A DNA stretch of 64,000 nt from an uncultured Chloroflexia bacterium (GCA_963734535.1 CAVTHS010000006.1:32001-96000); one strand, 5' to 3'; positions 22,782-53,828 are shown, counted from the stretch's first letter. Numbers and translations are program-made. The notes: generated by a model not told the origin, from the sequence alone.

Positions 22782-25700
22782 GCGGACGCCATCCGGTTGC
22801 CGGCGGCCGGTCAGAGTCCGGCGGCCGGGCAGCTGCCGTTCCCGGATCGGGGCAGGCCATCACGACCTCCGGTGTCCCGATGCGCGGCGTCGAGCCCGAG
22901 GACCGCGGCGCGCGCCGGCGGATCCCCGATCTCGCGGTCCTGCCGCCGCTCCTTCACGGCACCGCGCCGTTCCTCGCGCTGAGCGGGGCGCTCGGGCCGG
23001 GCGGCTCGGCGCCCGGTCCCCGGGGCCGACATGCGGCCGTGACCGCCGTCCCGCACGGCGCCAAGACGTTCCTGGCTGCCGCGCTCGCCCTCGCAGGCGG
23101 CGAGCGCGTCTGCTGGATCGCGCGCGACGCGGAGATCGGCGATCGCGTCGCGGAGGAGCTCACGGCATGGCTCGGGGACCCGGCCGCCGTGGCCGTCCTC
23201 GAGCCGCGCACCGCCCTCGCCTACGAGCGGAGCGAGCTCGTCCGTGACGAATCGGCGGCCCGCGTGGCGGCGCTCGCTGCGTGGCGAGCCGGGCGCGCCA
23301 GGGTGCTCGTGGCCTCGGTCCAGGCGCTCCTCCAGCCGACGCTCGGCGGAGACGACCTGCCGGCCGCGCCGCGTTCCATCCGTGTCGGGGACCGGCAGGT
23401 CCAGGGCGCCCTCCTCGCGGAGCTGCTCCGGCTGGGCTACGAGCCGGTGATCGAGGTCGCCGGTCGGGGCGAGTTCGCGCGGCGCGGCGGGCTCGTGGAC
23501 ATCTTCGCCGCCGGAGCGGACCTTCCCGTCCGGATCGAGTTCTTCGGCGACGAGATCGACAGCCTGCGCCGGTTCGATCCCGCGGACCAGCGCACGGTCG
23601 GGCCCGCCGAGGTCGTCGACCTGCTGCCTGCAAGCGAGTTCCTCCTCCCCGTCTCGGGCATGGCGGGCATCCGGTCGCGGCTGGGCTCCCTGGCAGGGAA
23701 GCTGCCCGAGCGCCTGGGCGCCGATCTCGCCCGTTTCGAGGGAGCCGACGAGGCCGGGCCGGCGACGGCCAGCGGGACGCGCGCCCTCGAGGCGGGCGAC
23801 GCGGCCGAGGTCTGGGCCGCGATCCTGTGTCCTGCCTCGGGGATCGATCACCTCCCGCCCGACACCCTCCTGGTCCTCGACGAGCCGGCCGACGTTGCCT
23901 CCGCAGCCCAGTTCCTGTGGGAGCAGGCCGCGGAGCGGCGACGCGACCTGATCGCCGCGGGCGAGCTGCCCGGCGAGTGGCCGGACGCCTACGTCGGGCC
24001 ACGGGACTGGAAGGCGCGCCTCGTCCGTGGCCGCACGCTCGAGCTCACCTGGGAGCCGGGGCCGGTCGAGGCGATCGGCGGCGGGCCGGCGACCGAGGAC
24101 CCGTTCGGCTGGCGCGAGCCGATGCTGCCGCCGGGCAGGAGCGCGAGCCTCCCGCGCGCCATCGAGCGCTGGCGTGCCGGCCGGTCGGCCACGGTGCCGA
24201 TCGCCGAGGAGGAGGCCGACGACGTCCGTCCGGCGGTCCCGCCGGGGATCGTGTCCTCGCGCCATGCGCCCGGGGCCCAGCGATCGCCGGCGCCGCGGAT
24301 CGTGCTGGCCTCCGACCAGGCGCCCCGCCTCTCCGAGCTCCTGGGCCAGGCCGGGATCCCCGCCGGCGTGACCTTCCACCCTGCCGTCGCCCCGCCGCCC
24401 GGGGCGGTGACGCTGGTCGGGCGGAGCTTGAACGCCGGGTTCGCCGGCGGGCCGGACGGCCTCGTGCTGGTCACCGACCGCGAGCTGTTCGGCGCCGTCC
24501 GCGTCCGCCGGCCGAAGGCGCTGCGACGCGTCGTGCCGCGCGACATCCTGGAGCGCCTCACGCCGGGCGACCTGGTCGTCCACGTCGATCACGGGATCGG
24601 CCGCTACGAACGGATGCTCCGGCGCGGGAGCGACGGCGGAGAGCGCGACTACCTCGAGATCGCGTTCGCCGGCTCGGACCGGATCTTCGTGCCCGTCGAG
24701 CAGATCAACCGCATCAGCCGGTACGCGGGTGCCGAGCGGCCCGGCCTCTCGAAGCTCGGCGGCGGGGAGTGGGCCCGGACCAAGGCCCGCGTCCGCCAGG
24801 CCGTCAGCGACCTGGCAGAGGAGCTTCTCGAGCTCTACGCCGCCCGGGCTGCCGCGGAGGGCCACGCCTTCCCGTCCGACACGCCCTGGCAGCAGGAGCT
24901 CGAGGCCTCGTTCCCCTACGAGGAGACTCCGGACCAGCAGCGAGCCATCGTCGACGTGAAGGCGGACATGGAGGCCGGCCGGCCGATGGACCGGGTGGTC
25001 GTCGGCGACGTCGGCTACGGCAAGACCGAGGTCGCCCTGCGGGCGGCGTTCAAGGCAATCCAGGACGGCCGCCAGGTGGCGGTCCTGGTCCCGACGACCA
25101 TCCTTGCCGACCAGCACATGCGCACGTTCGCCCAGCGCTTTGCGGCCTTCCCCATCACGGTGCGGCTGCTCTCGCGGTCGGTGCCGCCGCGCGAGCAGCA
25201 GGCCACGCTCGCCGGGCTGGCAACCGGCTCGGTCGACCTGATCGTCGGGACGCATCGACTCCTCTCGAAGGACGTCGTGATCCGCGACCTGGGCCTCCTC
25301 GTCGTGGACGAGGAGCAGCGCTTCGGGGTCGCCGCGAAGGAACGTCTGAAGCAGCTTCGCCGCGAGGTGGACGTCCTGACCCTCTCGGCGACCCCCATCC
25401 CGCGGACGCTCAACCTGGCACTCGTCGGGGTGCGCGACCTGTCCGTGATCGAGACGCCGCCCGAGGACCGCCTGCCCATCCAGACGCGCGTGGCCGAGGC
25501 GTCCGCCGGGCTCGTCAAGGACGCCGTGCTGCGCGAGCTCGATCGGGGAGGGCAGGCGTTCTATGTCCACAACCGGGTGGAGACGATCGAGGCGCAGGCG
25601 GACCAGCTCCGGCGGCTCCTGCCGGGCGCGCGGATCGTGGTCGGCCACGGACAGATGGACGAGCGACAGCTCGAGGAGGTCATGCGCAGCTTCGCGGGCG

Positions 25701-26626
25701 GCCAGGCGGACGTCCTCGTCTGCACCACCATCATCGAGTCCGGCCTGGACATCCCGAACGCGAACACGATCGTGATCGACCGCGCCGACACCCTGGGCCT
25801 CGCCCAGCTCTACCAGCTGCGCGGCCGCGTGGGACGGAGCTCGCGGCGCGCCTATGCCTACCTCCTCTACCGGCGCCGCGACCGGCTCTCCGACGAGGCG
25901 CGCAAGCGACTCCAGGCGATCTTCAACGCCTCGGAGCTTGGCGCGGGCTTCCAGATCGCGCTCTCCGACCTGGAGATCCGCGGCGCGGGCAACATCCTGG
26001 GCGGCGAGCAGTCGGGCCACATGGCGGCCGTCGGGTTCGACCTGTACACGAGGCTCCTCGCGGAGGCGGTCGAGGAACGCAAGGCGACCTGGGAGGGTCG
26101 TGCGCCGACGCTCGCCCCGGCGGGCGCCACGGTGGACCTGCCCGTCGACGCCCACCTCCCGGACGCCTACGTTCCCGACGAGGCGGCGAAGCTCGAGCTC
26201 TACCGGCGCCTGGCGCGCGCCCGGACCCGCGGGGATCTCGCCGCGTTCCGGCAGGAGGTTGCCGACCGCTTCGGGCCGCCGCCGCCAGCGGTGATCCGGC
26301 TCGTGGAGGTCGCGGAGCTGCGTCTCGCCGCGGAGGCCGCCGGGATCAGCTCGCTCGCTCGCGAGGAGGGCCAGCTGGTGGTCCGCTTCGGATCGGGCCT
26401 TTCGCGAGGCGAGGCGATGCGCCTCATCGCCGGCGCGCCGCTTCCCGGCGTGCGGCCGGGCGACATGACGTTCGCGGCGAGCCAGGTCCGTATCAGGATC
26501 CCGCGGGACGCTGCCCGGGCGTGGGTCCTGACCCAGGCCATCGTCACCCGCGTGGCCGCGGCGCGCGGACCCGACGGCGCGGATCAGGCGTCTCCTGCCG
26601 CCTCCTCGCCCCCCCGGAACCGGTAG
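22778..26626 (+). CDS. mfd: Transcription-repair coupling factor
   Basis: UvrB-like module, VVHVDHGIG, FPYEETPDQ, GDVGYGKTE, DEEQRFG, QLRGRVGR, DLEIRGAG. Start may be 22880. Confidence 0.96.
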   Translation: MSGRHPVAGGRSESGGRAAAVPGSGQAITTSGVPMRGVEPEDRGARRRIPDLAVLPPLLHGTAPFLALSGALGPGGSAPGPRGRHAAVTAVPHGAKTFLAAALALAGGERVCWIARDAEIGDRVAEELTAWLGDPAAVAVLEPRTALAYERSELVRDESAARVAALAAWRAGRARVLVASVQALLQPTLGGDDLPAAPRSIRVGDRQVQGALLAELLRLGYEPVIEVAGRGEFARRGGLVDIFAAGADLPVRIEFFGDEIDSLRRFDPADQRTVGPAEVVDLLPASEFLLPVSGMAGIRSRLGSLAGKLPERLGADLARFEGADEAGPATASGTRALEAGDAAEVWAAILCPASGIDHLPPDTLLVLDEPADVASAAQFLWEQAAERRRDLIAAGELPGEWPDAYVGPRDWKARLVRGRTLELTWEPGPVEAIGGGPATEDPFGWREPMLPPGRSASLPRAIERWRAGRSATVPIAEEEADDVRPAVPPGIVSSRHAPGAQRSPAPRIVLASDQAPRLSELLGQAGIPAGVTFHPAVAPPPGAVTLVGRSLNAGFAGGPDGLVLVTDRELFGAVRVRRPKALRRVVPRDILERLTPGDLVVHVDHGIGRYERMLRRGSDGGERDYLEIAFAGSDRIFVPVEQINRISRYAGAERPGLSKLGGGEWARTKARVRQAVSDLAEELLELYAARAAAEGHAFPSDTPWQQELEASFPYEETPDQQRAIVDVKADMEAGRPMDRVVVGDVGYGKTEVALRAAFKAIQDGRQVAVLVPTTILADQHMRTFAQRFAAFPITVRLLSRSVPPREQQATLAGLATGSVDLIVGTHRLLSKDVVIRDLGLLVVDEEQRFGVAAKERLKQLRREVDVLTLSATPIPRTLNLALVGVRDLSVIETPPEDRLPIQTRVAEASAGLVKDAVLRELDRGGQAFYVHNRVETIEAQADQLRRLLPGARIVVGHGQMDERQLEEVMRSFAGGQADVLVCTTIIESGLDIPNANTIVIDRADTLGLAQLYQLRGRVGRSSRRAYAYLLYRRRDRLSDEARKRLQAIFNASELGAGFQIALSDLEIRGAGNILGGEQSGHMAAVGFDLYTRLLAEAVEERKATWEGRAPTLAPAGATVDLPVDAHLPDAYVPDEAAKLELYRRLARARTRGDLAAFRQEVADRFGPPPPAVIRLVEVAELRLAAEAAGISSLAREEGQLVVRFGSGLSRGEAMRLIAGAPLPGVRPGDMTFAASQVRIRIPRDAARAWVLTQAIVTRVAAARGPDGADQASPAASSPPRNR

Positions 26627-27309
26627 CCCACGCCGTAGCTCGTGGCGATGAACCGGCGCGTCGGCGCGGCCTCGGCGAGCTTGGCCCGCAGGTTGCGCAT
26701 CGTCACCCGGAGCAGGTGGAGGTCGTCGCCGTAGCCCGGGCCCCAGACCGCGGTCAGCAGGTCGGTGTGGCCGACGACGGACTCCGGGCGCTCGGCGAGA
26801 TGGCGCAGGAGGCGGTACTCGGTTGGGGTGAGGTGGACCTCGCGGTCTCCGGCGGTCACCCGGTGATCCCGCCCGTCGATGACGAGGCCCGGGTGGCGGA
26901 GCTCGTCGCCCGCGATGGCCATGGCACGGGCGTTCGCGCGTCGGAGGACGGCTTCGATGCGCGCCATCAGCTCCGGGAAGCTGAGCGGCTTCGTCATGTA
27001 GTCGTCGGCGCCGGCGCCCAGGCCGCGGATCTTGTCCTGCTCGGCGTCCCGCGCGGTCACGAGGAGGATCGGGACAAGGCTCGTCGCCCGGATCCGCTCG
27101 ATCACCTGCCAGCCGTTCAGGCGCGGCAGGCTGAGGTCAAGCAGGACGAGGTCCGGCTCCTCGGCCTCGAAGCTGACGACCGCCTCGGCCCCGTCGTGCG
27201 CCACCCGCGGCCGCCAGCCGTGCCGCTCCACCCACAGCGCGAGGAGGTCCGCGAACTCCGGCTCATCCTCCACGATGAGGATGCGTGCCCCGGGCGGCGG
27301 GTCGGGCAT
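26584..27309 (-). CDS. OmpR/PhoB-family response regulator (KdpE-like)
   Basis: ILIVEDE, LLDLSLP, GADDYMTKP, LTPTEYRLL, GVGYRF; start overlaps the kinase stop. Confidence 0.95.
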   Translation of the reverse strand: MPDPPPGARILIVEDEPEFADLLALWVERHGWRPRVAHDGAEAVVSFEAEEPDLVLLDLSLPRLNGWQVIERIRATSLVPILLVTARDAEQDKIRGLGAGADDYMTKPLSFPELMARIEAVLRRANARAMAIAGDELRHPGLVIDGRDHRVTAGDREVHLTPTEYRLLRHLAERPESVVGHTDLLTAVWGPGYGDDLHLLRVTMRNLRAKLAEAAPTRRFIATSYGVGYRFRGGEEAAGDA

Positions 27310-28910
27310 CACTGGAGGACGGGGAGCCGGAACGAGATGGACATGCCGCGCCGGGTCGTGTCCAGTCGGATCCAGCCGCCGTGCGCCTCGACGAGCCGCC
27401 GGCAGACGTAGAGCCCCAGGCCGCTCCCCGGGATGCGCGACTCGCGCATCCGCCCGCCCCGGAAGAACCGGTCGAAGACCTGCGCCTTCTCTCCCGGGTC
27501 GATCCCCTCGCCGTCGTCGGCGAAGGTGACCACGACCGAGTCCGGGGGCAGGTGGCGCGCCCGGATCGTGATGGACGCCCCCGGGCCCGCGTACTTGTGG
27601 GTGTTCGCCGCCAGGTTCGCGAGGACCTGCCGGATGCGGCGGGCGTCCACGTCCACCTTCGGCAGCACCGGGACGTCGAGCGTGATGGCCGGAGCCCCGG
27701 CAAGCTCGCCATGCTCCGCGACGAACGCCTGCAGGAGGGCGCCGAGGTCCGTCGGCGCGCGATCGAGCTGGAGCTGGTCGCTCTCGAGCCGGGACACGTC
27801 GATCACCTCGTCGACGAGGGCCCCCAGCCGGTCGACGGCGTCCCCGATCCGCTCCAGGTGGTGCCGGCTCGTCGGGGCGTCGAGGCCCAGGTGCAGCAGG
27901 CTCTGGGAATGCCCGCTGATCAGGGCGAGGGGCGTCCGCAGCTCGTGCGAGATCGTGGCCACGAAGCTCGACTTGAGCGCGTCGAGCGCCCTCGTGACCC
28001 GCAGGTCGCGCAGGACCGCGACCGCGCCCGATGGGGAGCCTGTCATCCGCGCGTAGCTCGCCGCGACCGGGATCGGTGTTGCGTCCACGCCGCCGACCAC
28101 CTGCTCGCGGACCAGCGGCCGCCCGTGGGCCAGGACCTCCTGGAACGGGCACGTCCTCCCGCAGCCGCGGTTGCCGCCCCTCTCGGGCAGGCAGCCCAGG
28201 AACGCCTCGCAGGTCGCCCCGATCCCTTCGCGTTCGGCCGCCCCGACGAGCCGCGCCGCCGCGCCGTTGAGGCGCGTGATCCTCCCGTCCGAATCGACCG
28301 CGATGATCGCGTCGCTGGCGCCGTCGAGGATCGCGGCGAGCGTCGCCCGCTCCCGGAGGAGGGCGCCGCGCAGCTGCGCCGAGCGAAACGCGAGGGCGAG
28401 CTCGCGCCGGACGAGCCCGAGATAGCGGGCATGCCGGACGTCGAGCGCCTGGCCCGGCAGCGGCCGGATGGCAAGGTAGCCCAGCGCGACGCGCCCCTCC
28501 CCGCCGACTCCCAGGGCGCGGCTCTCCTCGAGCGGGACGCCGAACCAGCCGGCCCGGGCCGCCCAGCGACCGGCCGCCGTAGAGTCGGGGAACGAGGCGG
28601 GGAGCTCGGCTGGGTCGCCGGTTCCACCGACCGGATGCTGCCCAGCGGGTGGCAGCGAGGCGACCCGGTGGAGCGTCCGACGCGCGGGCGTCGCGAGCCA
28701 GAGCACCGCGTCGCCTGCGCCGCTCGTACGAGCGATCTCGGCGAGGACGGCCGGGGCCAGCTTCGCGAGGTCGTCGCCGGACGCCAGCAGCTGGCTCAGC
28801 TGGTACTGGGCAAACATCGCGTCGGCCTCTCGCTGGGCCTCGTCGAAGGTTCGCCGCCGCTCATCCTCCAGGCTGGCCACGCGCGCCCGGAGCACGTCCA
28901 GCTCGGTCAC
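27309..28910 (-). CDS. Soluble sensor histidine kinase (coiled coil-GAF-PAS-HisKA-HATPase)
   Basis: SHELRTPL H-box; QVLANLAAN, DDGEG, FDRFFRG, GSGLGL. PAS region AIIAVDSDGRITRLN. No TM segment. GTGA overlap with the upstream dhaL stop. Confidence 0.92.
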   Translation of the reverse strand: MTELDVLRARVASLEDERRRTFDEAQREADAMFAQYQLSQLLASGDDLAKLAPAVLAEIARTSGAGDAVLWLATPARRTLHRVASLPPAGQHPVGGTGDPAELPASFPDSTAAGRWAARAGWFGVPLEESRALGVGGEGRVALGYLAIRPLPGQALDVRHARYLGLVRRELALAFRSAQLRGALLRERATLAAILDGASDAIIAVDSDGRITRLNGAAARLVGAAEREGIGATCEAFLGCLPERGGNRGCGRTCPFQEVLAHGRPLVREQVVGGVDATPIPVAASYARMTGSPSGAVAVLRDLRVTRALDALKSSFVATISHELRTPLALISGHSQSLLHLGLDAPTSRHHLERIGDAVDRLGALVDEVIDVSRLESDQLQLDRAPTDLGALLQAFVAEHGELAGAPAITLDVPVLPKVDVDARRIRQVLANLAANTHKYAGPGASITIRARHLPPDSVVVTFADDGEGIDPGEKAQVFDRFFRGGRMRESRIPGSGLGLYVCRRLVEAHGGWIRLDTTRRGMSISFRLPVLQ

Positions 28911-29632
28911 CGGCGCCTCAGGGACCGGCGGCCGCTCGTCCGCCCATCGAGCATCGAGCGGAACAGGAGGAAGCACGAGGTTGCGCCCGGATCTCGGTGG
29001 CCGCGTGAACGCTCGCCGAGGCGCAGGGCGAGGCCCCGCCGGGCGACCATGGGGATCGTGGCCCGGACGCCCGCCCGCGCGGCCCGCGCCGCGCGCACGA
29101 AGGCCTCGTCCGGCGGGATGCCGGCGGCCGATCCGGCCTGGAGCGCCCGCACCGCGGGCTCCAGCGCGTCGAGGATGGTCTTGTCGCCGAGTCGGCACCT
29201 GCCGCGACGGGCAAGGCCGGCCCGGCCCGCGTCCAGCGCGCGCGCGAGCGTGGGCAGGTCGACCGCGTGGCGGCCGTCGAGCGCGAATCCCGTCTCGATG
29301 AAAAGCGTCCCGTACAGGGGGCCGCTTGCCCCGCCGACGCTGGCAACCAGCGTGTGGCCGATGCGGCGAAGCAGGGCCCCGACGTCGAGCGGTCCGGCCG
29401 CCTCGGCCGGTGCTTCGTCCTGGAGCGCCCGGATCACCGCCTGCAGGCCCGTGCTCATGTTCGTGCCGTGGTCGCCGTCGCCGAGCGCCGCGTCGAGCCG
29501 GTCGAGCAGCGCCTCGTGGCGCGCGATGGTGACGGCAGCACGCCCGACGAAGGCGACGACGTCCTCGGCGGTGATCGCGACCGCGGAGGCGCCGGCACCC
29601 GCCGCGGCTCGGTCGGGTCGCCCTAGACTCAT
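28907..29632 (-). CDS. DhaL (DAK2) paralog with degenerate catalytic loop
   Basis: [30 protein letters not shown] and DPGATS are kept; [11 protein letters not shown] is replaced by RGLALRLGERS. Confidence 0.88.
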   Translation of the reverse strand: MSLGRPDRAAAGAGASAVAITAEDVVAFVGRAAVTIARHEALLDRLDAALGDGDHGTNMSTGLQAVIRALQDEAPAEAAGPLDVGALLRRIGHTLVASVGGASGPLYGTLFIETGFALDGRHAVDLPTLARALDAGRAGLARRGRCRLGDKTILDALEPAVRALQAGSAAGIPPDEAFVRAARAARAGVRATIPMVARRGLALRLGERSRGHRDPGATSCFLLFRSMLDGRTSGRRSLRRR

Positions 29633-29709
29633 GCAGCCAGAGTCTACCCTTCGCCACGAGCAGGTCCGCGGCGATCCGGGCGGACGCCGGACAGCTCGGG
29701 AGGTGTTCG

Positions 29710-30174
29710 ATGGTCGCGCTCGTCCTGGTGGGCCACAGCCCCGAGCTCCTGCACGGGCTCCGCGCGATGCTCGCCCAGGCCGCGGCCGGCGTCCCCGTCC
29801 GCGTGGCCGGCGGCACAGATAGTGGTGCGCTGGGGACCAGCGCGCCGCGGATCCTGCACGCGATGCGCTCCGCCCTTGCGGATGCCCCGGACGGAGCGAT
29901 CGTGCTGCTCGACCTCGGCAGCGCCGCGCTCGCCCTCGAGATGGCGCTCGATGAGCTCGAGCCGTCCGCACGTGCCCGTGTGCGGGTGAGTCGGGGCGCG
30001 ATCGTCGAGGGAGCCGTGCGAGCCGCCGTCGAGGCTGCCGGCGGCGGGTCGCTCGCGGCCGTGCTCGCGGCCTCGGAGACGCCGCCGGCCCGGGACAAGC
30101 TTCCCGAGGACTGGCCGGCGGACGGGGCGGCCCCCGGCACCCCGGGGGAGACCCCGGGTCGGCCGGCCCGGTGA
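29710..30174 (+). CDS. dhaM: PTS-dependent dihydroxyacetone kinase phosphotransferase subunit DhaM (EIIA-Man-like), paralog 1
   Basis: LVLVGHS (phospho-His), AGG...GTS, DLGSA, IVEGA. Confidence 0.85.
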   Translation: MVALVLVGHSPELLHGLRAMLAQAAAGVPVRVAGGTDSGALGTSAPRILHAMRSALADAPDGAIVLLDLGSAALALEMALDELEPSARARVRVSRGAIVEGAVRAAVEAAGGGSLAAVLAASETPPARDKLPEDWPADGAAPGTPGETPGRPAR

Positions 30175-30816
30175 GCGGGGCGCTCGTCGTCGCCTGGCTC
30201 CGCCTCGCGGCATCTCGCGTCGCCGCGGAGCGCATGCGCCTGACCGACCTCGACGCCGCCGTCGGCGACGGGGACCACGGGATCAACCTGGATCGCGGCT
30301 TCGCTGCCATCGAGGCGCGGCTGGCAGCTGGCGACGTCCCGACGGAGGCTCCAGCCCCCATCCTCGCCCTCGCGGCCCGAACCATCACGGGCACCGTCGG
30401 TGGGGCCAGCGGCGCGCTGTACGGCCGCGCGCTGCTGCGGGCCGACTGCGGCGGTGGAGCTCTGGCCCGTCGGCGCGGGAATGTCGGTGGCCCAGGTCGC
30501 GGCCGCGCTGCGGGCCGCGGTGGAGGGGATCGCTACCCTCGGCCGGTCCCTGCCCGGGGAGAAGACGATGCTCGACGCGCTCGTCCCGGCGGTCGCCGCG
30601 CTCGAGGAAGCTGCGGTCTCCGGCCTGGGCCTCCCTGACTCCCTGCGCCGAGCGGCGGACGCGGCCGACGCCGGTGCCCGGGCGACGGTCCCGATGCTGG
30701 CCACGAAGGGTCGCGCAAGCTACCTGGGGGAGCGCTCGATCGGCCATCTCGACCCTGGCGCCGTCTCGAGCACGCTGCTCCTCCGGGCCCTCGCGGACGC
30801 CGCGAGAGGCGCCTGA
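30171..30816 (+). CDS. dhaL: Dihydroxyacetone kinase subunit DhaL, paralog 2; apparent frameshift near 30443
   Basis: [18 protein letters not shown], then [26 protein letters not shown] in a shifted frame. Confidence 0.85.
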
Positions 30817-30870: not shown

Positions 30871-30933
30871 CCGCAACGTTCCCGCAACCTAGACGTTTCC
30901 TTGACGTTTTTCGCCATGCCGCGGGCGTACCGT
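30871..30933 (+). promoter_or_regulatory. Putative glpF promoter with two pairs of 11-bp-spaced direct repeats
   Basis: CCGCAAC at 30871 and 30882; GACGTTT at 30892 and 30903; TACCGT -10-like hexamer at 30928-30933. Confidence 0.5.
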
Positions 30934-31076
30934 TTCGGCAACAGTGCTCGAGGGCACTGTGGCGTCGGCGTGATCGGCCGCCACGCGACCCGGGCCGGGG
31001 TCGCGGTGGTGGCAGCGGAGGGATCGAGCGAGGTTCGCAGCCGGCGTGGGTGTCCAACCCAATAGAGGGAGTGAGC

Positions 31077-31811
31077 ATGAGCACGGAGAAATTCGTAGCG
31101 GAACTGATCGGGACCATGATCCTGATCCTGCTCGGTGACGGCGTCGTCGCTGGCGTCCTTCTGAACAAGTCCAAGGCGTTTGCGGGCGGCTGGATCGTCA
31201 TCACCCTGGCGTGGGGACTTGCCGTCTTCTCGGGCGTCGTGGTTTCGGGCCCCTACAGCGGCGCGCACCTGAACCCGGCGGTCACCCTCGGTCTCGCCAT
31301 CACCGGCGCGACCCCGTGGGACCAGGTTCCGATGTACCTCGTGGCCCAGTTCCTGGGCGCGTTCATCGGCGCGACGCTGGTCTTCCTGCATTACTACCCG
31401 CACTGGGCTGAGACCGAGGACCCGGGCCTCAAGCTCGCTGTCTTCTCGACTGGCCCGGCCATCCGCAGCCCGCTCTGGAACCTGATCTCGGAGATCATCG
31501 GGACGTTCGTCCTCGTCTTCGTGATCCTGACCTTCGGGAAGAACACCGCGAGCCTCGGCCCCTTGGCCGTTGCCCTCCTCGTCGTCGTGATCGGCCTCTC
31601 GCTCGGAGGTACGACCGGGTACGCGATCAACCCCGCCCGCGACCTCGGGCCGCGGATCATGCATGCGATCCTGCCGATCCCCGGCAAGGGAGGCAGCGAC
31701 TGGGAGTACGCGTGGATCCCCGTGGTCGGTCCGCTCATCGGCGGCGCGATTGCTGCGGTCTTCTGGGTTGCCCTCTACAAGGACTTCATCCTGAAGGCCT
31801 TGCCAAACTGA
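31077..31811 (+). CDS. glpF: Glycerol uptake facilitator (MIP family)
   Basis: [10 protein letters not shown] and [13 protein letters not shown] (NPA plus D, aquaglyceroporin type). Confidence 0.95.
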
Positions 31812-31859: not shown

Positions 31860-31917
31860 TCCGCACTCTCGTGAGCATCCCGAGCATCGGTTGGTTGACC
31901 CGCCATTGGAGGAGCGC

Positions 31918-32916
31918 ATGAAGAAGCTCATCAACACCCCGGAGCGCGAGGTCGACGAGGCGCTCGCCGGTATGGCAGCGGCCCACCCTGACCTGCTCCG
32001 CGTCGAGGAGCCCAACATCATCGTCCGCAAGGACGCGCCCCGACCCGGCAAGGTCGGCGTCATCTCCGGCGGTGGCTCGGGCCACGAGCCGATGCACGGC
32101 GGCTTCGTCGGGCTCGGCATGCTGGATGCGGCCTGCCCGGGCGCGGTCTTCACCTCGCCCGTGCCGGAGCAGATGCTCGCCGCAACCAAGGCGGTGAACG
32201 GTGGCGCCGGGGTCCTTCACATCGTGAAGAACTACACCGGCGACATCATGAACTTCGAGATCGCCGCGGAGATGGCGCAGGCGGAAGGGATCGAGGTCGC
32301 CTCGGTCGTGATCGCCGACGACGTCGCCGTGAAGGACTCGCTCTACACCGCGGGTCGCCGCGGCGTCGGCGGCACCGTGCTCGCCGAGAAGATCGTCGGA
32401 GCCGCCGCCGAGGCGGGCGCCGACCTCAAGACCGTCACCGCCCTCTGCCAGAAGGTCCAGGACAACGTCCGGTCGATGGGCATGGCCCTGACCTCCTGCA
32501 CCGTGCCGGCTGCCGGCAAGCCCACGTTCGACATCTCCGACTCGGAGATGGAGATCGGGGTCGGGATCCATGGCGAGCCCGGGCGGCGCCGCGAGGCGCT
32601 CCGGCCGGCCGACGAGATCGTCGAGATGCTCGTCACCCCGATCCTGGAGGAGGGCATCTTCGGCAGCGGCGACCGCGTCCTCGCGTTCGTCAACGGCATG
32701 GGTGGCACGCCGCTCATCGAGCTCTACGTCGCCTACCGGAAGGTGAACGAGATCCTGACCGGCAAGGGCATCACGATCGCGCGCAACCTGGTCGGGAGCT
32801 ACATCACGTCGCTCGAGATGGCGGGCTTGTCGATCACGCTCCTCAAGCTCGACGACGAGCTGCTCCGATACTGGGACGCGCCGGTCAAGACACCCGGCCT
32901 GCGGTGGGGAGTCTGA
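31918..32916 (+). CDS. dhaK: Dihydroxyacetone kinase subunit DhaK
   Basis: [32 protein letters not shown]. Confidence 0.97.
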
Positions 32917-33545
32917 ACACCGTGATCTCGACAGGCGACTTCTCGCGGTTCCTCGAGACGTTCGCCGCCCGGATCCACGCCGCAAAGGAGGAGCTGACAC
33001 AGCTCGACTCCGCCATCGGCGACGCGGATCACGGGATCAACATGGACCGCGGGATGACCGCCATCGTGGAGCTCCTCCCCGGGCTCCGGGACGGCGATGC
33101 CGGGACCCTCTTCAAGCAGACCGGCATGAAGCTCATCTCGACGGTCGGCGGGGCCAGCGGCCCCCTGTACGGGACGTTCTTCCTTCGCCTGGGCACCGCG
33201 TTCGGCACGGCCACGGAGATCGGCCCCACCGAGCTTGCCGCAGGGTTCCGAGCCGGGCTGGAGGGCGTCATCGCCCGCGGCAAGGCCGGGCTCGACGACA
33301 AGACGATGGTCGATGCCATGGTTCCGGCCGTCGCCGCCCTCGAGGCGGGCATCGGGGATCTCCCGGCCGCCCTCGACGCCGCCGCCGTGGCGGCCGCCGC
33401 GGGTCGCGACCGGGTGACTCCGCTCGTGGCCCGGAAGGGTCGCGCGAGCTACCTCGGGGAACGATCCGCGGACCACCAGGATCCTGGGGCGACGAGCACC
33501 ACGATCCTCTTCGAATCCCTTCGCGACGCTTTGCGCGCCGGCTAG
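32904..33545 (+). CDS. dhaL: Dihydroxyacetone kinase subunit DhaL (canonical)
   Basis: [45 protein letters not shown]. Start may be 32922. Confidence 0.95.
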
Positions 33546-33583: not shown

Positions 33584-35081
33584 ATGACAAAGTACGTCGG
33601 CGCGCTCGACCAGGGCACAACGAGCACCCGCTTCATGATCTTCGACCACGCCGGTGCCGTCGTGGCAGTCGATCAGAAAGAGCACGAGCAGATCTTCCCG
33701 AAGCCAGGCTGGGTCGAGCACGACCCGATGGAGATCTGGACCCGGTCGCAGGAGGTCATCAAGGGCGCTCTTGCCAAGGCCGGCATCACCGCCGCAGACC
33801 TCGCCGCGGTCGGCATCACGAACCAGCGCGAGACCGCGGTGGTCTGGGATCGCAAGACCGGCAAGCCGGTCTACAACGCGATCGTCTGGCAGGACACCCG
33901 GACCGACCAGATCTGCGCCGCCCTGGCCAAGGATGGCGGCTCGGATCGCCTTCGGCCGAAGACCGGCCTTCCGCTGGCGACCTACTTCTCCGGCCCCAAG
34001 ATCAAGTGGATCCTCGACAACGTCGAGGGTGCCCGGGCCAAGGCCGAGGCGGGCGACCTCCTCTTCGGCAACATCGACAGCCTGGTGCATCTGGAACCTG
34101 ACCGGCGGCACGTCGGGCGGCGTCCACATCACGGACGTCTCCAACGCGAGCCGGACCCTCCTCTTCAACTACACCACGCTCGACTGGGATCCCGAGATCC
34201 TCGCTCTCATGGGCATCCCGAAGTCGATGCTTCCGGCCGTCAAGGCCTCCTCCGAGGTCTACGGCACGGCCGTCGGCGACCTCGCCGGCGTCCCGGTCGC
34301 AGGCGACCTCGGCGACCAGCAGGCCGCCCTCTTCGGCCAGACGTGCTTCTCCCCAGGCGAGGCGAAGAACACGTACGGCACCGGCTGCTTCATGCTCCTC
34401 AACACGGGCACGAAGGCAGTTCCGTCGAAGAACGGCCTCCTCACGACCCTCGGCTACAAGATCGGCAACCAGCCGGCCGTGTACGCCCTCGAGGGTTCCA
34501 TCGCGATCACCGGCGCCCTCGTGCAGTGGCTCCGCGACAACCTCGGGATGATCGAGAAGTCCCCCGACATCGAGGCCCTGGCGGCCACGGTCGAGGACAA
34601 CGGCGGCGTCTACTTCGTCCCGGCGTTCAGCGGCCTCTTCGCGCCGTACTGGAAGAACTCTGCGCGCGGCGTCATCGCCGGCCTGACCCGGTACGTCAAC
34701 AAGGGCCACATCGCGCGTGCCGTCCTCGAGGCGACCGCGTGGCAGACCCGCGAGGTCCTCGACGCCATGAACGCCGACTCCGGCGTTCCGTTGACGGCCC
34801 TCAAGGTCGACGGCGGCATGGTCTTCAACGACCTGCTCATGCAGTTCCAGTCGGACGTCCTGGGCGTCCCGGTCATCCGCCCGAAGGTTGCCGAGACGAC
34901 GGCCCTCGGCGCGGCCTACGCCGCCGGCCTCGCGGTCGGTTACTGGGCAGAGGTCGAGGACCTTCGCGCCAACTGGGCCAAGGACAAGACCTGGGAGCCC
35001 AAGATGGACGCGGCGCTCCGCGACAAGGAGTACGCGCTCTGGAAGAAGGCCGTCACGCGGACCTTCGACTGGGCGGAGTAG
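33584..35081 (+). CDS. glpK: Glycerol kinase; apparent 1-nt frameshift near 34081
   Basis: [26 protein letters not shown], then [33 protein letters not shown]. Confidence 0.95.
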
Positions 35082-35183: not shown

Positions 35184-35260
35184 CCACGGAGCGGCCCGCC
35201 AGGGGCCCGGCCGGCAGGATCACGCAGGACACGACAGGGGACCAGAGCGAGGTGAGCAGG

Positions 35261-36892
35261 ATGGGTGAGGCACACGCCTACGACGTCCTCGTCGTCGGCG
35301 GGGGTGCGACCGGGGCCGGGGTGCTCCGGGACCTGGCGCGACGTGGCCTGCGCACCCTTCTCGTGGAGCGCGGCGACTACGGCACCGGCACGACGGGCCG
35401 ATACCACGGCCTCCTGCACTCCGGGGGCCGATACGTCGCCAAGGACGCGCTCGCCGCGCGGGAGTGCATCTCGGAGAACCGGATCCTTCGACGCATCGCC
35501 CCGGCGAGCATCGAGGATACCGGCGGCTACTTCGTCGCCACGCCGAACGACCCGGACGACTACGTCGCCGGCTTCCAGGCGGCCTGCATCGCCGCCGACG
35601 TCGATTGCGAGGAGATCCCGGTCGCCGAGGCGCTCCGCCGCGAGCCGGCGCTCAACCCGCGCATCCGTCGCGTCTTCAAGCTGCCGGACGGCTCGGTCGA
35701 GCCCTGGCAGCTCATCGAGTCCAACATCGCCGACGCGCGCGTCCACGGCAGCGACGCCTGGTCCTACCAGCGCCTGGTGAGCATGGAGCGCGACGGCGCC
35801 CGGATCGTGGCGGCAACGCTCCGCGACGAGCGCTCGGGGAGCCTGACGCGCATCACGCCCCGGTTCGTGGTCTCGTGCGCAGGCGCCTGGTCCGGCCAGA
35901 TCGCGGCGATGGTGAACGTCACGGTGACGATGCACCCGGGCAAGGGCACGATGCTCATCTTCAACCAGCGGATGACCGACACGGTGGTCAACCGCTGCCA
36001 CAAGTCCTCCGATGGCGACATCATGGTGCCCGTCCATACCGTCGCGATCCTCGGGACCACCGAGCAGCGCGTGGAGGACCCCGATCGGTACGAGATCACC
36101 CGCGAGGAGGTTGCCGCGCTGATCGCCCAGGGCGAGGTGCTCTTCCCCGACCTCGCGAAGATGCGGCTGCTGCGCGCCTACGCCGGCGTGCGCCCGCTCT
36201 ACCAGCCGCCCGCCGAGGTGACCGCCGCCGCGCTCAAGGACGGCCGCCAGATCTCCCGTGCGCACACGGTCCTCGACCACGGCGCGATGGACGGCGTCGA
36301 GAACTTCGTCACGATCGTGGGCGGCAAGCTGACCACGTTCCGCAGGATGGCCGAGGACACGGTCGACATGGTGTGCGGCAAGCTCGGCGTCACCGAGCCG
36401 TGCACCACGGCCGACGAGATCCTGCCCGGCCAGGTCCCCGGCAAGACGTACTGGCTGGGCCACCGGCTGGCCGATCACGAGGCGGAGGGCGGCGGGGACG
36501 CCGCGCTCCTCTGCGAGTGCGAGTTCGTCACGCGTCCGCAGCTCGACGCCTTCCTTGACCGCCATCCCGACGCCTCGCTCGACGACGTCCGTCGGGGCAC
36601 CCGGGTCGGGATGGGGCCGTGCCAGGGAGGCTTCTGCACGTTCCGGGCCGCGGGCGTGGTGGGCGAGCGGGCCGGGCATGCCGGGGCGACCGATGTCGCC
36701 GAACAGGCCGACCGTGCGATCCTCGGGTTCCTCCGCGAGCGTTTCAAGGGCACGCGGCCGATCGCGGCGGGCCGCCAGCTGCAGGAGCAATGGATGATCT
36801 CCGGGGTCTACGAGGGTGGGCTGGGGGTCGAATCCCTGATCGAGCACGAGACGCCCGAAGCGTCCCGGGAGGTGGTCGGTGCCCAGCGCTGA
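35261..36892 (+). CDS. glpA: Anaerobic glycerol-3-phosphate dehydrogenase subunit A
   Basis: [31 protein letters not shown]-terminal CECE...[10 protein letters not shown]. Confidence 0.94.
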
Positions 36893-38201
36893 CGTCGTCG
36901 TCATCGGGGCCGGCCTCGCCGGGCTGACGGCAGCCATCGCGGCGGCCGAGTCCGGCGCGCACGTCGTCGTCCTGGCCAGGGGCCACGCCGCCACGCACTG
37001 GGGGCCGGGCGGGATCGACGTCGCCGGGATCCCGGCCGCGTCCACGCCCCGTGACGGGATCCGCCTCCTCGCGAGCCAGCCCGGCCACCCGTACGGCTTC
37101 CTGGGCGACGACGTCGCCGCGGCGCTCGACTGGCTCCGGCCGCACCTGGCGGCCGGCGGGGTCGACTACGTTGGTGACCTCGACACGCCTCTCCAGGCCG
37201 TGCCGACCTCCATCGGCGGGACGCGCCGCGCGGCCATCCTGCCGGCGGGCCAGGCGGCGGCGCTCTCGCCGTGGGCGCCGGGCGAGCGCCTCCTCGTGTG
37301 TGGCATCGCCGGTTTCAAGGATTTCTGGCCAGAGGCGATCGCCGCCAGCCTGTCGCGGGAGCGGATCTGGCAGGGCGGCAGCCGGCCGGCGTCGGTGACG
37401 CCGATCAGCGTGGCGCTCCCCGGGCTCGCCGCCCGGCACAACCTCAACGCCCTCGAGATCGCTCGGCGCTTCGACGACCCCGCGTGGCGCGCGACTGCGA
37501 TCGCCGCGCTGGCGCGGGCCCTCGCGGCCGTACCCGGGTCGGGTGGCCGCGTCGCCCTGCCGGCCGTCCTCGGGATCCGCGACCACGCGGCGGTCCTCGC
37601 GGCGGTTCAGGAGCACCTTCCGGCCGCGCCATTCGAGATGCCGCTCGTCCCTCCCAGCGTGCCGGGGATGCGCCTGTACGCGGCCCTCCGGGCGGCGCTG
37701 ATCCGGGCCGGCGGACGCGTCCAGGTCGGCGAGATCATCGAGCACGTCGAGCACGACGGTCATCGCGTCACGGCCGTCGTGGCCGCGGCCGCGGCCCGCA
37801 CGTACACCGTGCGGACCGGCGCCCTGGTCCTCGCCACCGGCGGGATCGCGGGTGGCGGCCTCGTCGCGGAGCGCGACGGGCGGCTCATGGAGGTCGTCCT
37901 GGGGCTCCCCGTGGAGGCGCCGCCGGTGGACGAGTGGCTCGCCCTCGACGCGTTCGACCCGGCGGGCCATCCGCTGGAGAAGGCGGGGATTCGCACCGAC
38001 ACCGAGCTGCGGCCCGTCGGCGCCGACGGGGTGCCCGTGTTCGACAACGTCCGCGTGGCCGGCAGCCTCCTCGCCGGCCAGCGATCTATCGGGGAACGTT
38101 GCGGCGACGGCGTCGCGCTCACCAGTGGACGACGGGCGGCGCGATCGCTGACCGCCGTCCCGGCCGGGCATGCCGCCAAGCCGGGGAGCAAGCGACCGTG
38201 A
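36879..38201 (+). CDS. glpB: Anaerobic glycerol-3-phosphate dehydrogenase subunit B
   Basis: [28 protein letters not shown]...GGL; lies between glpA and glpC. Confidence 0.92.
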
Positions 38202-39538
38202 CGATCGCCGAGCTGATCATGGATGCCTCGGAAGAGGCCGTCGGGTACACGTCCGACGAGTGTCTCAAGTGCAACGTCTGCCTCACCGTCTGCCCCGTCG
38301 CCCGTGTCACCGACCTGTTCCCCGGACCGAAATACGTCGGTCCGCAGGCCCAGCGATTCCGGACGGGCCGGGCGCAGCCCGTCCAGGTGCCAGGCACCCC
38401 GATCGCGCTCTCTCCCGACGTGACGGTCGACTACTGCTCGGGCTGTGGCTGGTGCACGACTGCCTGCCCGGCCGGCGTGAAGATCGCCGAGATGAACAGC
38501 CAGTCCCGCGCGCGGATGAAGGCCGGCAAGCGCCCGAAGCTCCGCGACTGGGGCCTGGGCCAGACGGACCTCGTCGGTCGCGTGGGAGTGCTCTTCTCGC
38601 CGATCTCCAACTGGGCGCTCGCGAACCGGCCGATACGGGCCATCATGGAGACGACGGTCGGCATCCATCGCGAGGCACCGTTCCCGAAGTTCGGCCGCCG
38701 GACGCTCCAGGCCACCTGGAAGCGCCGCCAGAAGCGGCGCGGCACGGCCGCCGTGCCCGGTCCCGACAAGGCCGTCGTCTACTTCCACGGATGCTCCGCG
38801 AACTACTACGAGCAGCACGTGGCCGATGCCGCGATCGAGATCCTGAAGCGCAACGGCTTCGAGACGATCATCCCGGAGCAGGTCTGCTGCGGCCTGCCGC
38901 TCATCAGCAACGGGATCTACACCGAGGCCCGCCAGCGGGCGCACAAGAACCTCGACGTGCTGGCTCGCTACGCACGCCAGGGCTACCGGATCGTCGGAAC
39001 GTCCACCTCCTGCACGCACACGATCAAGGCCGAGTACCGGGAGATGCTCGACATCCACGAGGACGACGCGTCGCTCGTGGCCAACGCGACGTGGGACATC
39101 TGCGAGTTCCTCCTCGACCTCCACGAGCAGGGCAGGCTCGACACCCGATTCGGCCGGCTCGACGAGGATCTTCCGTACCACGCCCCGTGCCAGCTGCGCT
39201 CCCACGGGATCGGGCTTCCCGCCATGGACCTCTTCGCGCTCGTGCCCGGGCTCCGGGCCGCCGACATGGACCATGACTGCTGCGGGATCGCGGGCACGTA
39301 CGGAATGAAGAAGGAGAAGTACCCGATCGGGATGGCAGTCGGTGCCCCGCTCTTCGACAAGATCAGGGCCAGCGGCGCCGCCGAGGCCGCGTGCGACTCG
39401 GAGACGTGTCGCTGGCAGATCGAGAAGGCGACCGGGACGCGAACGCGACATCCCATCGAGATTCTCCTGCAGGCCTATCGCGCCGGGGACGCGGAGTCCC
39501 GGAAGCGGAACGGGCAGCCCGCCGCCGGAGACGCGTGA
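38198..39538 (+). CDS. glpC: Anaerobic glycerol-3-phosphate dehydrogenase subunit C (Fe-S/CCG domains)
   Basis: CLKCNVCLTVCP, CSGCGWCTTACP, YFHGC, two CCG motifs, CRWQI. Confidence 0.94.
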   Translation: MTIAELIMDASEEAVGYTSDECLKCNVCLTVCPVARVTDLFPGPKYVGPQAQRFRTGRAQPVQVPGTPIALSPDVTVDYCSGCGWCTTACPAGVKIAEMNSQSRARMKAGKRPKLRDWGLGQTDLVGRVGVLFSPISNWALANRPIRAIMETTVGIHREAPFPKFGRRTLQATWKRRQKRRGTAAVPGPDKAVVYFHGCSANYYEQHVADAAIEILKRNGFETIIPEQVCCGLPLISNGIYTEARQRAHKNLDVLARYARQGYRIVGTSTSCTHTIKAEYREMLDIHEDDASLVANATWDICEFLLDLHEQGRLDTRFGRLDEDLPYHAPCQLRSHGIGLPAMDLFALVPGLRAADMDHDCCGIAGTYGMKKEKYPIGMAVGAPLFDKIRASGAAEAACDSETCRWQIEKATGTRTRHPIEILLQAYRAGDAESRKRNGQPAAGDA

Positions 39539-39543
39539 CGCCG

Positions 39544-39969
39544 ATGGGGGACGACGGGATCACCGAGCGGCTCGTCGGGCTGGTCATCGTCTCGCACTCG
39601 TCGAAGGTCGCCGACGGCACCGTCGAGCTGGCCGCCCAGATGGCCGGCGACGACGTCCGGATCGTCGCCGCGGGCGGCCTGGCGGACGGCGCGATCGGGA
39701 CCGACGCCACCCGGATCGCGGCCGCCATCCAGGCGGCTGACGCGGGCGCAGGGGTCGTGGTCATGACCGACCTCGGGAGCGCCGTCCTCTCCGCGTCGAC
39801 GGCGCTCGAGATGCTCGACGCGGAGCAGGCGGCCCGCGTCCGCCTGAGCCGCGGCCCCGTGGTCGAGGGTTCGATCGTTGCCGCGATCCAGGCCAGCGTC
39901 GGCGACACCCTCGAGGTCGTCGTCGAGACCGCGGACGCGATGCTGGCGCACGACAAGCTCGCTGGGTGA
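39544..39969 (+). CDS. dhaM: DhaM (EIIA-only), paralog 2
   Basis: VGLVIVSHS, AAGG..DGAIGT, DLGSAVLS, PVVEG. Confidence 0.92.
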   Translation: MGDDGITERLVGLVIVSHSSKVADGTVELAAQMAGDDVRIVAAGGLADGAIGTDATRIAAAIQAADAGAGVVVMTDLGSAVLSASTALEMLDAEQAARVRLSRGPVVEGSIVAAIQASVGDTLEVVVETADAMLAHDKLAG

Positions 39970-48268: not shown

Positions 48269-48339
48269 CCGCGGCGCCGACGCCATTCGGCACGGCGTCG
48301 CTGCCCGAGTCGAGCGGCTCGAACGCTCGTTCCCTCGGC

Positions 48340-49161
48340 TCAGCGACGTCGAGTGCCGCCCGGGCGTGGGCGTCTCCGGTTGCGGCGCCGGACGTCGGAC
48401 GCGATCAGCATGCCGAGCAGGGCCAGGGCGATGACGACCGCGAACACCGCGCTCGAGACTCCGCCCTGGTCTCCAGCCGTCCCAACGGGGATCGCGGGGC
48501 CCGTGTGACCGGCCGAGGTCCCGGGACTCACCACGGGGTTCGGGCCGGCGCCCGACGGCGAACCTGCGGATCTTCGAGCGACGAGGGCAAAGTCGCCGAA
48601 CCGGGTGACGACGGCGGTGAACACGGGAGCAAACCCCGCGGCCTGGGTCTCGAGCGGCTCCCATCCGCCAGGGGTCAGCTGCTCGATCGTTACCAGCGGC
48701 TCGTCGCCCGGGCTGCGCATGACGACCGTCACCTGCTGAGCCGCCGGTGCCGTGAGGTCGACCCCGGCCTGGTTCGTGAGCGTGATGCGGTACACGTTGC
48801 CATCAATGCGGCCGTCGGTCGGGAGCGTGCCCGGTGCGACCGGGGTGATCGAGATCCTGATCGACGTGGTTCCCGCCGGCAGGTCGAGTGAGCCTGGCGT
48901 TGCGAAGACCTGGGCCTGGGGCGGAAGCTCCCCGGTGCCGAGGGCGACCAGCGGATTGGCCCCGTTGACGGGCTCCACGACGTTCGCGGCAGACCCTGGG
49001 CCCCCGGGCTGGCCCTGCAGCGGTGTCAGCCATCGGTAGGGCTCCTGCACCGCGACGCCGTCGTAGAGCGGTGGAGTGAGCACGGGTGCGACGTGCTGGG
49101 CGGCAAGGATCGCGATGATGCCGATCGCAAGCGAGGCGATTCCGATGCGGTGCTCGCGCAT
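48340..49161 (-). CDS. Hypothetical surface protein with signal peptide and C-terminal TM plus Arg-rich tail
   Basis: Hydrophobic N-terminus, PPLYDG...PYRW, beta-rich body, P/G/S linker, TM helix, RRRNRRR; start overlaps the CPBP stop. Confidence 0.7.
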   Translation of the reverse strand: MREHRIGIASLAIGIIAILAAQHVAPVLTPPLYDGVAVQEPYRWLTPLQGQPGGPGSAANVVEPVNGANPLVALGTGELPPQAQVFATPGSLDLPAGTTSIRISITPVAPGTLPTDGRIDGNVYRITLTNQAGVDLTAPAAQQVTVVMRSPGDEPLVTIEQLTPGGWEPLETQAAGFAPVFTAVVTRFGDFALVARRSAGSPSGAGPNPVVSPGTSAGHTGPAIPVGTAGDQGGVSSAVFAVVIALALLGMLIASDVRRRNRRRPRPGGTRRR

Positions 49162-51198: not shown

Positions 51199-51199
51199 G

Positions 51200-51681
51200 T
51201 CACTTCACCGTGAAGAGGACTTCGTCGGACCAGACCCGCGGGTTGAACGGGGCGTGATCGGCGGCCACGAACTCGGCTTTGAGCACGTACGTCCCAGGGT
51301 GGACCGGCAGGTCCTGCTCGAGGCCGTAGTTCATCGAGACGAGGACGTTGTCGACGTACAGGTGGACGTGGCCCGCGGTCGGGTCGGATGCTCGTCGAGG
51401 TTGCAGCCACGATCTCGGCGCCCTGGAGCGAGACGATGATGTGCACCGTCGAGCCGTTGACGACCGCGCCCTGGGCCGGCGACGTGATCGCGATGACGGC
51501 CGGGGAGGCCGGCCGCGATCCGCTGGGCGTTGCGGCAACAGGGCTCGCGCCGGACGCGCCCGGCGGCGCAGATACGAGACCCGGATCCACCGATGCCGGT
51601 CCGCCGGCGGAGCAGGCCGCGAGGCTGACCGCGACCGCTACCGATCACCAGGAGGCGTCGAACGCGGCTGGTCGTGGACAT
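51200..51681 (-). CDS. Putative metal-binding lipoprotein; apparent frameshifts near 51640 and 51375
   Basis: Reconstructed lipobox LAAC, ITSPAQGAVV, GHVHLYVD, AEFVAADHAPF. Start may be 51693. Confidence 0.65.
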
Positions 51682-51689
51682 CGGATACC

Positions 51690-53743: not shown

Positions 53744-53828
53744 GGCACGGGCACGAGGACCTCCTACCCTCCGCTGGCCGGGACTGGCAGCGCGCCCCGA
53801 TCGGTCCGGCCGCGGACTGTCTGGTGCC

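Follow-up and report, generated by a model that had tools for sequence, protein, structure and literature searches.

To our knowledge, the subunits of dihydroxyacetone (DHA) kinase are textbook 'trigger enzymes' that serve as co-factors only with one-component regulators, DhaR and DhaS. The present analysis concerns a locus in which a paralogue of the L subunit, here termed DhaL*, is encoded together with a histidine kinase (HK) and an OmpR-type response regulator (RR) beside the genes for glycerol and DHA catabolism. The locus lies in a 64,000-nucleotide stretch of DNA (the window) from an uncultured Chloroflexia bacterium (GCA_963734535.1 CAVTHS010000006.1:32001-96000). In the account drawn from PMC10084136, the sensor of Escherichia coli DhaR consists of a GAF and a PAS-like domain, and whether DhaL carries ATP or ADP governs the regulator, for which DhaL is the activator and DhaK the repressor. 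The arrangement proposed for the window is alike in that an L subunit would inform a cytoplasmic GAF and PAS sensor about DHA phosphorylation in a nucleotide-dependent manner, as DhaL::ADP does for DhaR, and in both cases the regulator gene is found beside the dha genes. In contrast, the signal in E. coli is the catalytic DhaL itself, whereas the window encodes a dedicated paralogue without the equivalent of Arg178; and the DhaR sensor is fused to an AAA+/HTH one-component output, whereas that of the window is joined to HisKA and HATPase_c domains, with a separate OmpR-type RR.

In Lactococcus lactis, DhaQ, a non-catalytic paralogue of the K subunit, is a co-factor of DhaS, the TetR-type regulator of the dha operon, and the NCBIfam family TIGR02362 carries the name 'DhaKLM operon coactivator DhaQ'. 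A non-catalytic Dha-kinase subunit paralogue as the co-factor of a regulator would be common to both systems, which differ in that DhaQ-DhaS combines a K paralogue with a TetR regulator and the window an L paralogue with a two-component system. The sole DhaK of the window fits the dhaK1 model (492.5 bits, cut-off 406.25) and not that of DhaQ (TIGR02362; 275.2 bits, cut-off 413.25), and Pfam and NCBIfam gene annotation gave no TetR gene at the locus. Control of histidine kinases by accessory proteins is described, in the parts of PMC9239096 and PMC9239213 drawn on here, for EIIA-Ntr with KdpD and PhoR and for PhoU/PstSCAB with PhoR. As proposed for DhaL*, a soluble protein that reflects metabolism, and not a small ligand, steers the kinase in these cases; they differ in involving other protein families, membrane-bound kinases and no Dak2-fold protein. 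A link between FakA and SaeRS of Staphylococcus aureus is known here from the title of a reference in PMC9136124. The FakA N-domain is among the fold matches of DhaL*, and the likeness lies in a Dak2-fold nucleotide-binding domain that is linked to two-component signalling. The effect of FakA on SaeRS is indirect, through fatty acids, and FakA differs from DhaL* in being an active enzyme with no operon coupling.

That a Dha-kinase subunit may be a transcriptional co-factor and that accessory proteins may steer histidine kinases is already known; what is new is that the L paralogue is a dedicated one lacking the arginine and that the output is a two-component system. Full-text literature searches gave no title or abstract in which a DhaL-type protein is linked with a histidine kinase, and nothing relevant was found in the literature on Limnocylindria and glycerol. 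The reading favored here, for which the chances are about even, is that DhaL* is a non-catalytic reporter of nucleotide state that controls the kinase and, via the kinase, the glpF/dha promoter. If this is true, the nucleotide-state signal of an L subunit would be plugged into a two-component output, sensing and catalysis would be divided between DhaL paralogues, and DhaL* would represent a new class of accessory sensor for soluble histidine kinases. The locus also opens carbon regulation in Limnocylindria to testing; only metagenome-assembled genomes (MAGs) stand for this lineage here.

Conservation of the dhaL*-Kinase-Regulator Operon

Genes were called from codon-position G+C in the ∼73% G+C DNA of the window and then checked with Pfam and NCBIfam. 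An earlier note, made from the sequence of the window alone, had described dhaL*, kinase and regulator genes as joined by overlapping stop and start codons and had counted three DhaL, two DhaM and one DhaK. The same three, two and one were recovered with Pfam and NCBIfam, and the overlaps are as described: read directly, the dhaL*/HK junction is GTGA, and so is the HK/RR junction, unless translation begins at the ATG, in which case it reads TGATG. The minus-strand dhaL*-HK-RR genes face dhaM1-dhaL2, followed by glpF-dhaK-dhaL3-glpK-glpABC-dhaM2 (Table 1).

A word-indexed search with the sensor part of the kinase (residues 1-310) gave 245 matches at E <= 0.001 among 8000 candidates scored, and those that are named are Chloroflexi or Limnocylindrales MAG proteins. 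The N-terminal parts of eleven kinase matches were aligned, and a collection of species-representative genomes was scanned, in which 183 stretches matched and 78 were confirmed, giving 77 loci. Those from Hylemonella (L076) and Leptospira (L077) matched only the first residues of the PAS domain and were excluded from all counts. The remaining 75 loci are MAG contigs titled Chloroflexota, Chloroflexia, Limnocylindr- or Anaerolineaceae, with the exception of L053 (Rokubacteria). Window proteins were mapped onto the loci with tblastn, and the denominators given below are the loci with enough DNA.

A same-strand Dak2 gene, dhaL*, is located immediately 5' of the kinase gene in 70/72 loci, and the RR gene is downstream of the kinase in 71/71. 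Divergent dhaM of the EIIA type was found in 64/66 loci, and the upstream flank contains dhaK in 60/62 and glpF in 61/62. Among the 55 loci in which both dhaL* and the kinase gene are unbroken, the start codon of the kinase overlaps the stop codon of dhaL* in 50; the overlap is 4 nt long in 43 of these and a single nt in the other 7. There are two exceptions to the arrangement: L033, which has frameshifts throughout, the kinase included, and L046, described below, which is free of such damage. Recurrence in 70 of 72 related loci places the dhaL*-HK arrangement far beyond chance, and the observations support dhaL*-HK-RR as a conserved, translationally coupled operon beside glycerol/DHA genes.

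The earlier note had regarded the dhaM1-dhaL2 pair as part of the same syntenic unit. While the dhaL*-HK-RR portion of this unit is conserved, as the counts above indicate, the dhaM1-dhaL2 pair does not accompany it throughout. No dhaL2 was detected beside dhaM1 in L025, L059, L063, L065, L066, L067 and L068, and in L071 and L072 a Dak2 gene is located after the RR gene. The most divergent loci (L059, L063, L065 and L066) contain a single dhaM that is divergent from dhaL*. Thus dhaL2 is a variable accessory part of the locus, and the constant core consists of the dhaL*, kinase and regulator genes, opposite a dha/glp gene set headed by dhaM.

DhaL* and the Lost Arginine

DhaL* is 37% identical to E. 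coli DhaL and scores 170.9 bits against TIGR02365 (cut-off 138.3), with a Dak2 match of E = 6.9e-47. It carries LDAALGDGDHG, GGASG, GDKT and DPG, and these nucleotide/Mg motifs (DxxxGDxDHG, GGASG, DKT, DPG) are invariant in 55/55 orthologues. An AlphaFold model of the protein (pLDDT 87.6) has the all-helical DhaL fold, and its best fold match is E. coli DhaL (3pnl_B; TM 0.93, target-normalised; root-mean-square deviation 1.4 Å over 210 columns). In place of the KGRASYLG region of E. coli DhaL (PDB chains and MG1655 b1199), DhaL* has ARRGLALRLGERS, in which R178 is replaced by Leu201, S180 by Leu and Y181 by Arg. Leu201, together with Arg199, Arg204, Arg145 and Cys146, is invariant in all 55 orthologues. 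Both the retention of the motifs and the replacement of the arginine had been read in this way in the earlier note. Its further statement, that the other DhaL proteins keep the arginine, is true of DhaL3 and of the second piece of DhaL2, which retain the Arg-type loop, although the frameshift that splits dhaL2 in the window had been missed, as had the one in glpK.

According to the portion of a 2026 review (PMC13663913) that is used here, Arg543 of human triokinase/FMN cyclase (TKFC) adjoins Gly542 in a mobile loop (535-554); triokinase activity is lost on mutagenesis of Arg543 and is lowered in the patient variant Arg543Ile. Because the residue of DhaL* at what is taken to be the equivalent position is Leu, and the arginine is described as required for activity, DhaL* is most likely unable to phosphorylate DHA. 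It is a DhaL member by descent and fold, but probably not by catalytic function.

Alternatively, DhaL* may still be a working kinase subunit, with DhaK or with another partner, carried as cargo in an autoregulated operon whose kinase senses a metabolite, redox state or oxygen via its GAF and PAS domains. A score above the curated DhaL cut-off and the retention of the fold and all the nucleotide/Mg motifs would be expected of such a protein. This alternative is nevertheless unlikely, since all 55 orthologues have Leu in place of an arginine that is described as essential for phosphoryl transfer, and a catalytic DhaL3 is already encoded right after dhaK. The first position of dhaL* in the operon, together with its overlap with the kinase gene in 50/55 loci, suits a stoichiometric partner better than cargo. 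In addition, the changes specific to DhaL* cluster in the loop that, according to the same portion of PMC13663913, closes over the K subunit: 12 positions are conserved in DhaL* but differ from a conserved DhaL3 residue, and 5/12 of these fall within residues 199-210.

An alignment of 174 Dak2 proteins from the loci and the window comprises 65 DhaL*, 58 DhaL3, 48 DhaL2 and 3 from elsewhere. The DhaL* consensus reads RRGRC..GDKTI and ARRGLALRLGeRSRGH.DPGAtSC, whereas DhaL2 and DhaL3 keep the Arg-type loop. In a maximum-likelihood tree (quick search, LG+G4) the 65 DhaL* rows form a single clade with an SH-aLRT of 100, separate from DhaL2 and DhaL3. DhaL* is as conserved as the catalytic paralogue, with a median identity to the window protein over 55 loci of 59.1%, compared with 52.4% for DhaL3. 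The dhaL* gene is unbroken in 67/70 loci, and its derived motif is invariant across lineages down to 44% identity. These comparisons support DhaL* as a distinct clade under purifying selection. Frameshifts in the window (dhaL2, glpK) and in many related long-read MAG loci might suggest that DhaL* is a functionless, decaying duplicate or an artefact of annotation or assembly. The probability of this is close to nil, as it is refuted by the unbroken frames, the level of conservation and the invariant motif of dhaL*.

A profile search with DhaL* against 1.84 billion cluster representatives gave 7885 matches at E <= 0.001, and the loop position was inspected in the best 150 of these. KGR was present in 106, and Leu occupied the Arg178 position in eight (P0124-P0130 and P0258), seven of which are the seven best-scoring matches; 27 gave no match to the regular expression, and in the rest it fell on another motif. 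With eight of the best 150 matches, seven of them at the top of the list, the Leu variant is rare and confined to the small DhaL* family. One public source labels DhaL*-type proteins plain 'DhaL', and the difference between DhaL* and an ordinary DhaL is missed by public annotation.

Two apparent DhaL-histidine kinase fusions in public protein sets, P0095 (822 aa, L041) and P0131 (627 aa, L075), are read-throughs of frameshifted dhaL* in long-read MAGs. Other long relatives are DhaK-DhaL or DhaL-DhaM-HPr-EI fusions. Among them, P0285-P0313 (∼870-1070 aa) contain Dak2 and EI, and mostly also EIIA(Man) and HPr, and represent DhaL fused to a whole DhaM-type chain of the phosphotransferase system (PTS); the named ones belong to Actinomycetota or Microcella.

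Kinase Sensor, DhaM1 and the Proposed Signaling Route

The kinase has no transmembrane helix, as the earlier note had stated, the highest Kyte-Doolittle mean over 19 residues being 1.2. Together with the RR it has the features of a classical two-component system, namely the H-box His, the N and G boxes, a receiver and a winged-helix output; His322 (HisKA), Asn436 and the Gly boxes are invariant among orthologues. Neither the kinase nor the RR matched an NCBIfam equivalog at or above its cut-off. No Pfam or PDB sequence match was obtained for residues 1-192 of the kinase; in the PDB profile search, residues 1-185 had no match, and weak ones at the PAS edge were all that it gave. A model of residues 1-192, built with 42 orthologues (pLDDT 85), has a GAF core between two long helices, one N-terminal and one at the exit; the GAF fold spans residues ∼46-190, and the top fold matches to the model come from the GAF domains of regulators, phytochromes and PtsP. 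The PAS domain occupies residues 186-300 (Pfam). As modeled, the sensor is a GAF and a PAS domain, the same pair as in the DhaR sensor; the likeness is architectural, and descent is not demonstrated.

Four conserved cysteines in the PAS domain form a C-x5-C ... C-x3-C-P-F pattern (window 28149-28211), in which the two pairs are separated by a loop whose length varies. Cys234, Cys240 and Cys254 are kept in 55/55 orthologues and Cys250 in 52/55. The pattern suggests a metal or Fe-S site, which may supply a second input, redox or oxygen.

DhaM1 scores 92.1 bits against TIGR02364, just below the cut-off of 98.25. The earlier note had assumed that the DhaM paralogue, like that of DhaL, is non-catalytic. 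This does not hold, as judged from the sequence: 61 orthologues share DLGSA and the phospho-His motif LVLVgHS, so that DhaM1 is not a degenerate paralogue. A connection to the PTS is visible in L065, in which dhaM is followed by an HPr gene (4682-4960, minus strand; Pfam PTS-HPr E = 9.4e-26, GLHARPA) and then by glpF-dhaK-dhaL. Inspection by eye showed HPr-like sequence at the matching place in L059 and L066 as well.

In the favored reading, DhaL* would retain the DhaL fold and a tight nucleotide/Mg site, and could exist in an ADP or an ATP form. Phosphorylated DhaM, which is of the EIIA type and would be fed by the PTS via HPr, would be expected to phosphorylate the ADP bound to DhaL*. With Leu in place of Arg and a remodeled mobile loop, DhaL* would not discharge onto DhaK-bound DHA and would have no flux-carrying role. 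Its nucleotide state would instead mirror the phosphorylation of DhaM, which would be drained when DhaL3 and DhaK phosphorylate DHA. One nucleotide form of DhaL* would bind the cytoplasmic GAF-PAS sensor and shift the balance between kinase and phosphatase activity, and the OmpR-type RR would then act on phased repeats at the glpF-dhaK-dhaL3-glpK promoter, its presumed target.

DhaL* might also regulate the kinase but report free cellular ATP/ADP or some other ligand, and not the state of DhaM and the PTS. The remodeled loop and a GKA to GRC change near the nucleotide site are compatible with this, and fast nucleotide exchange is described for some L domains of the DAK family, the C. freundii enzyme being the case given in the excerpt of PMC9136124. 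Such a role is rather improbable in view of the divergent dhaM that adjoins dhaL* in 64/66 loci with its phospho-His motif kept, and of the HPr gene within the neighboring dhaM operon of L065. The modeled fold match to E. coli DhaL over 210 columns is likewise consistent with a retained capping segment.

Several observations weigh against DhaL* as the reporter that informs the kinase. That TKFC Arg543 corresponds to E. coli Arg178 (Gly177-Arg178 of KGRASYLG) is inferred from the shared Gly-Arg dipeptide and the wording of the cited portion of the review. The kinase has possible inputs of its own, the GAF pocket and the four-Cys PAS domain; two potential ligand or cofactor domains, one with three invariant cysteines and a fourth nearly so, would also fit a kinase that senses by itself while DhaL* works as an enzyme subunit, and a redox input would make sense with the anaerobic-type glpABC genes nearby. 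The same can be said of L046, which keeps an apparently normal kinase (54/55 invariant residues) and RR with no adjacent dhaL* or dhaM; its kinase gene is 615 nt from glpF, and neither gene lies between them. Comparison of the kinase sensor with E. coli DhaR gave an hhalign probability of 12.8% over 100 columns, which is not significant, and DhaR structures are not among the 50 fold matches listed for the model of the kinase N-terminal part. Finally, no genuine DhaL-kinase fusion was found among 45 long DhaL* relatives (E <= 1e-20). Mutual information between columns of DhaL* and the kinase, calculated from 55 paired rows, gave scattered top pairs that, at so shallow a depth and with no valid control, are uninformative.

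A bolder version of the reporter model, possible but somewhat doubtful, is that DhaL* is a pseudo-enzyme linking the phosphoryl relay of the PTS and DHA to that of a two-component system. Charged by DhaM and unable to discharge onto DHA, it would dock in its ADP or ATP form on the GAF domain of the kinase; redox state or oxygen would be read in addition through the four-Cys PAS domain, the two forming a two-input gate for glycerol/DHA catabolism. If true, no histidine kinase that reads a nucleotide carrier of the Dak2 fold would have been known before.

Candidate Control Sites and Locus Layout

A -10-like TAGACT is located at 29641-29646 on the minus strand, 8 nt upstream of the dhaL* start, and no ribosome-binding site is present. 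TAGACT or TACACT is comparably close to the dhaL* start in most of the intergenic regions inspected (by eye, uncounted). An element so near the start, in a gene that lacks a ribosome-binding site, suggests that dhaL* is probably transcribed with little or no leader. The dhaM1 gene is preceded by a GGGAGG ribosome-binding site.

Upstream of glpF, the direct repeats CTAGACG (30889-30895) and CTTGACG (30900-30906) are 11 bp apart, and the proximal one is in a -35-like position, with a 21-nt spacer to a -10-like TACCGT (30928-30933; TAnnnT). Just 5' of GACGTTT-N4-GACGTTT lies CGCAAC-N5-CGCAAC (30872-30888), both within 30872-30909. The exact repeat occurs nowhere else in the window. A search pattern based on this promoter layout is present in 54/63 glpF upstream regions. 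An ungapped anchored alignment of 52 regions has cTnGAC kept exactly 11 bp upstream of CTTGAc, and the distal heptamer has <=2 bases different from the proximal one in 26/52. In L059, L063 and L066, dhaM-glpF-dhaK-dhaL are together on the strand opposite dhaL*, preceded by the dhaM/dhaL* intergenic region, and it is here that a similar GTCAAG/TTGAC repeat in 11-bp phase is found. Activators of the OmpR/PhoB family use phased direct repeats that overlap the -35 element, and the repeats upstream of glpF are a candidate operator that we infer to be bound by the RR of the module.

A conserved, structured 5' leader of ∼140 nt (30934-31070) separates the promoter of glpF from the ribosome-binding site of the gene. 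One hairpin, CAGTGC..GCACTG, has compensatory changes in other lineages (CGGTGC/GCACCG and CAGTAC/GTACTG), and a second is formed by GCGACCC..GGGTCGC; double changes occur at 3/38 predicted pairs in 7 sequences. No Rfam match to the leader was obtained up to E = 1. It could provide a second, RNA-level control of glpF.

Table 1. Positions of the genes and the candidate control region of the locus, counted from the first nucleotide of the window
Feature	Position	Strand	Description
Response regulator (RR)	26584-27312	-	OmpR/PhoB family, 242 aa; Pfam Response_reg and Trans_reg_C
Histidine kinase (HK)	27309-28910	-	533 aa; Pfam PAS, HisKA and HATPase_c
dhaL*	28907-29632	-	DhaL paralogue, 241 aa; Pfam Dak2, TIGR02365
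dhaL*/dhaM1 divergent intergenic region	29633-29709		77 bp
dhaM1	29710-30174	+	Single-domain EIIA(Man)-type DhaM; Pfam EIIA-man, TIGR02364
dhaL2	30171-30816	+	Second DhaL paralogue; Dak2 in two pieces, two frames
Candidate glpF operator/promoter	30889-30933	+	Phased direct repeats and -10-like element
glpF	31071-31811	+	Pfam/NCBIfam
dhaK	31906-32916	+	Pfam/NCBIfam
dhaL3	32904-33545	+	Overlaps dhaK end; Pfam/NCBIfam
glpK	33584-35081	+	+1 frameshift at 34082; Pfam/NCBIfam
glpA/B/C-like, three genes	35252-39538	+	Pfam/NCBIfam
dhaM2	39535-39969	+	Pfam/NCBIfam

Two genes of the locus are interrupted in the window. The dhaL2 gene is split over 30171..30638 and 30400..30816, one codon having 4 nt at 30444-30447 (+1 frameshift), and glpK has one extra base. 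Both are unbroken among the relatives L003, L004 and L005, dhaL2 being intact in L003 and L004. The two breaks are assembly errors or recent mutations, and because similar breaks are found in many related long-read MAG loci, assembly error is the simplest and likely explanation, and decay of the genes the less likely one.

At the other end of the module, the 3' ends of mfd (22880-26626, plus strand) and the RR gene overlap convergently by 43 nt (26584-26626), as they do in close relatives, e.g., L001. Farther away, window positions 48268-55600 have a weak codon-position signal and contain weakly scoring minus-strand open reading frames that are Rce1-like, periplasmic-binding, YtkA-like and of the CopC domain; a search for rRNA and other Rfam families in this stretch (48-54 kb for rRNA) gave none. 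A cobalamin riboswitch (Rfam RF00174) is present at 63535-63651 on the plus strand, with a score of 33.9 bits against a gathering score of 31.5.

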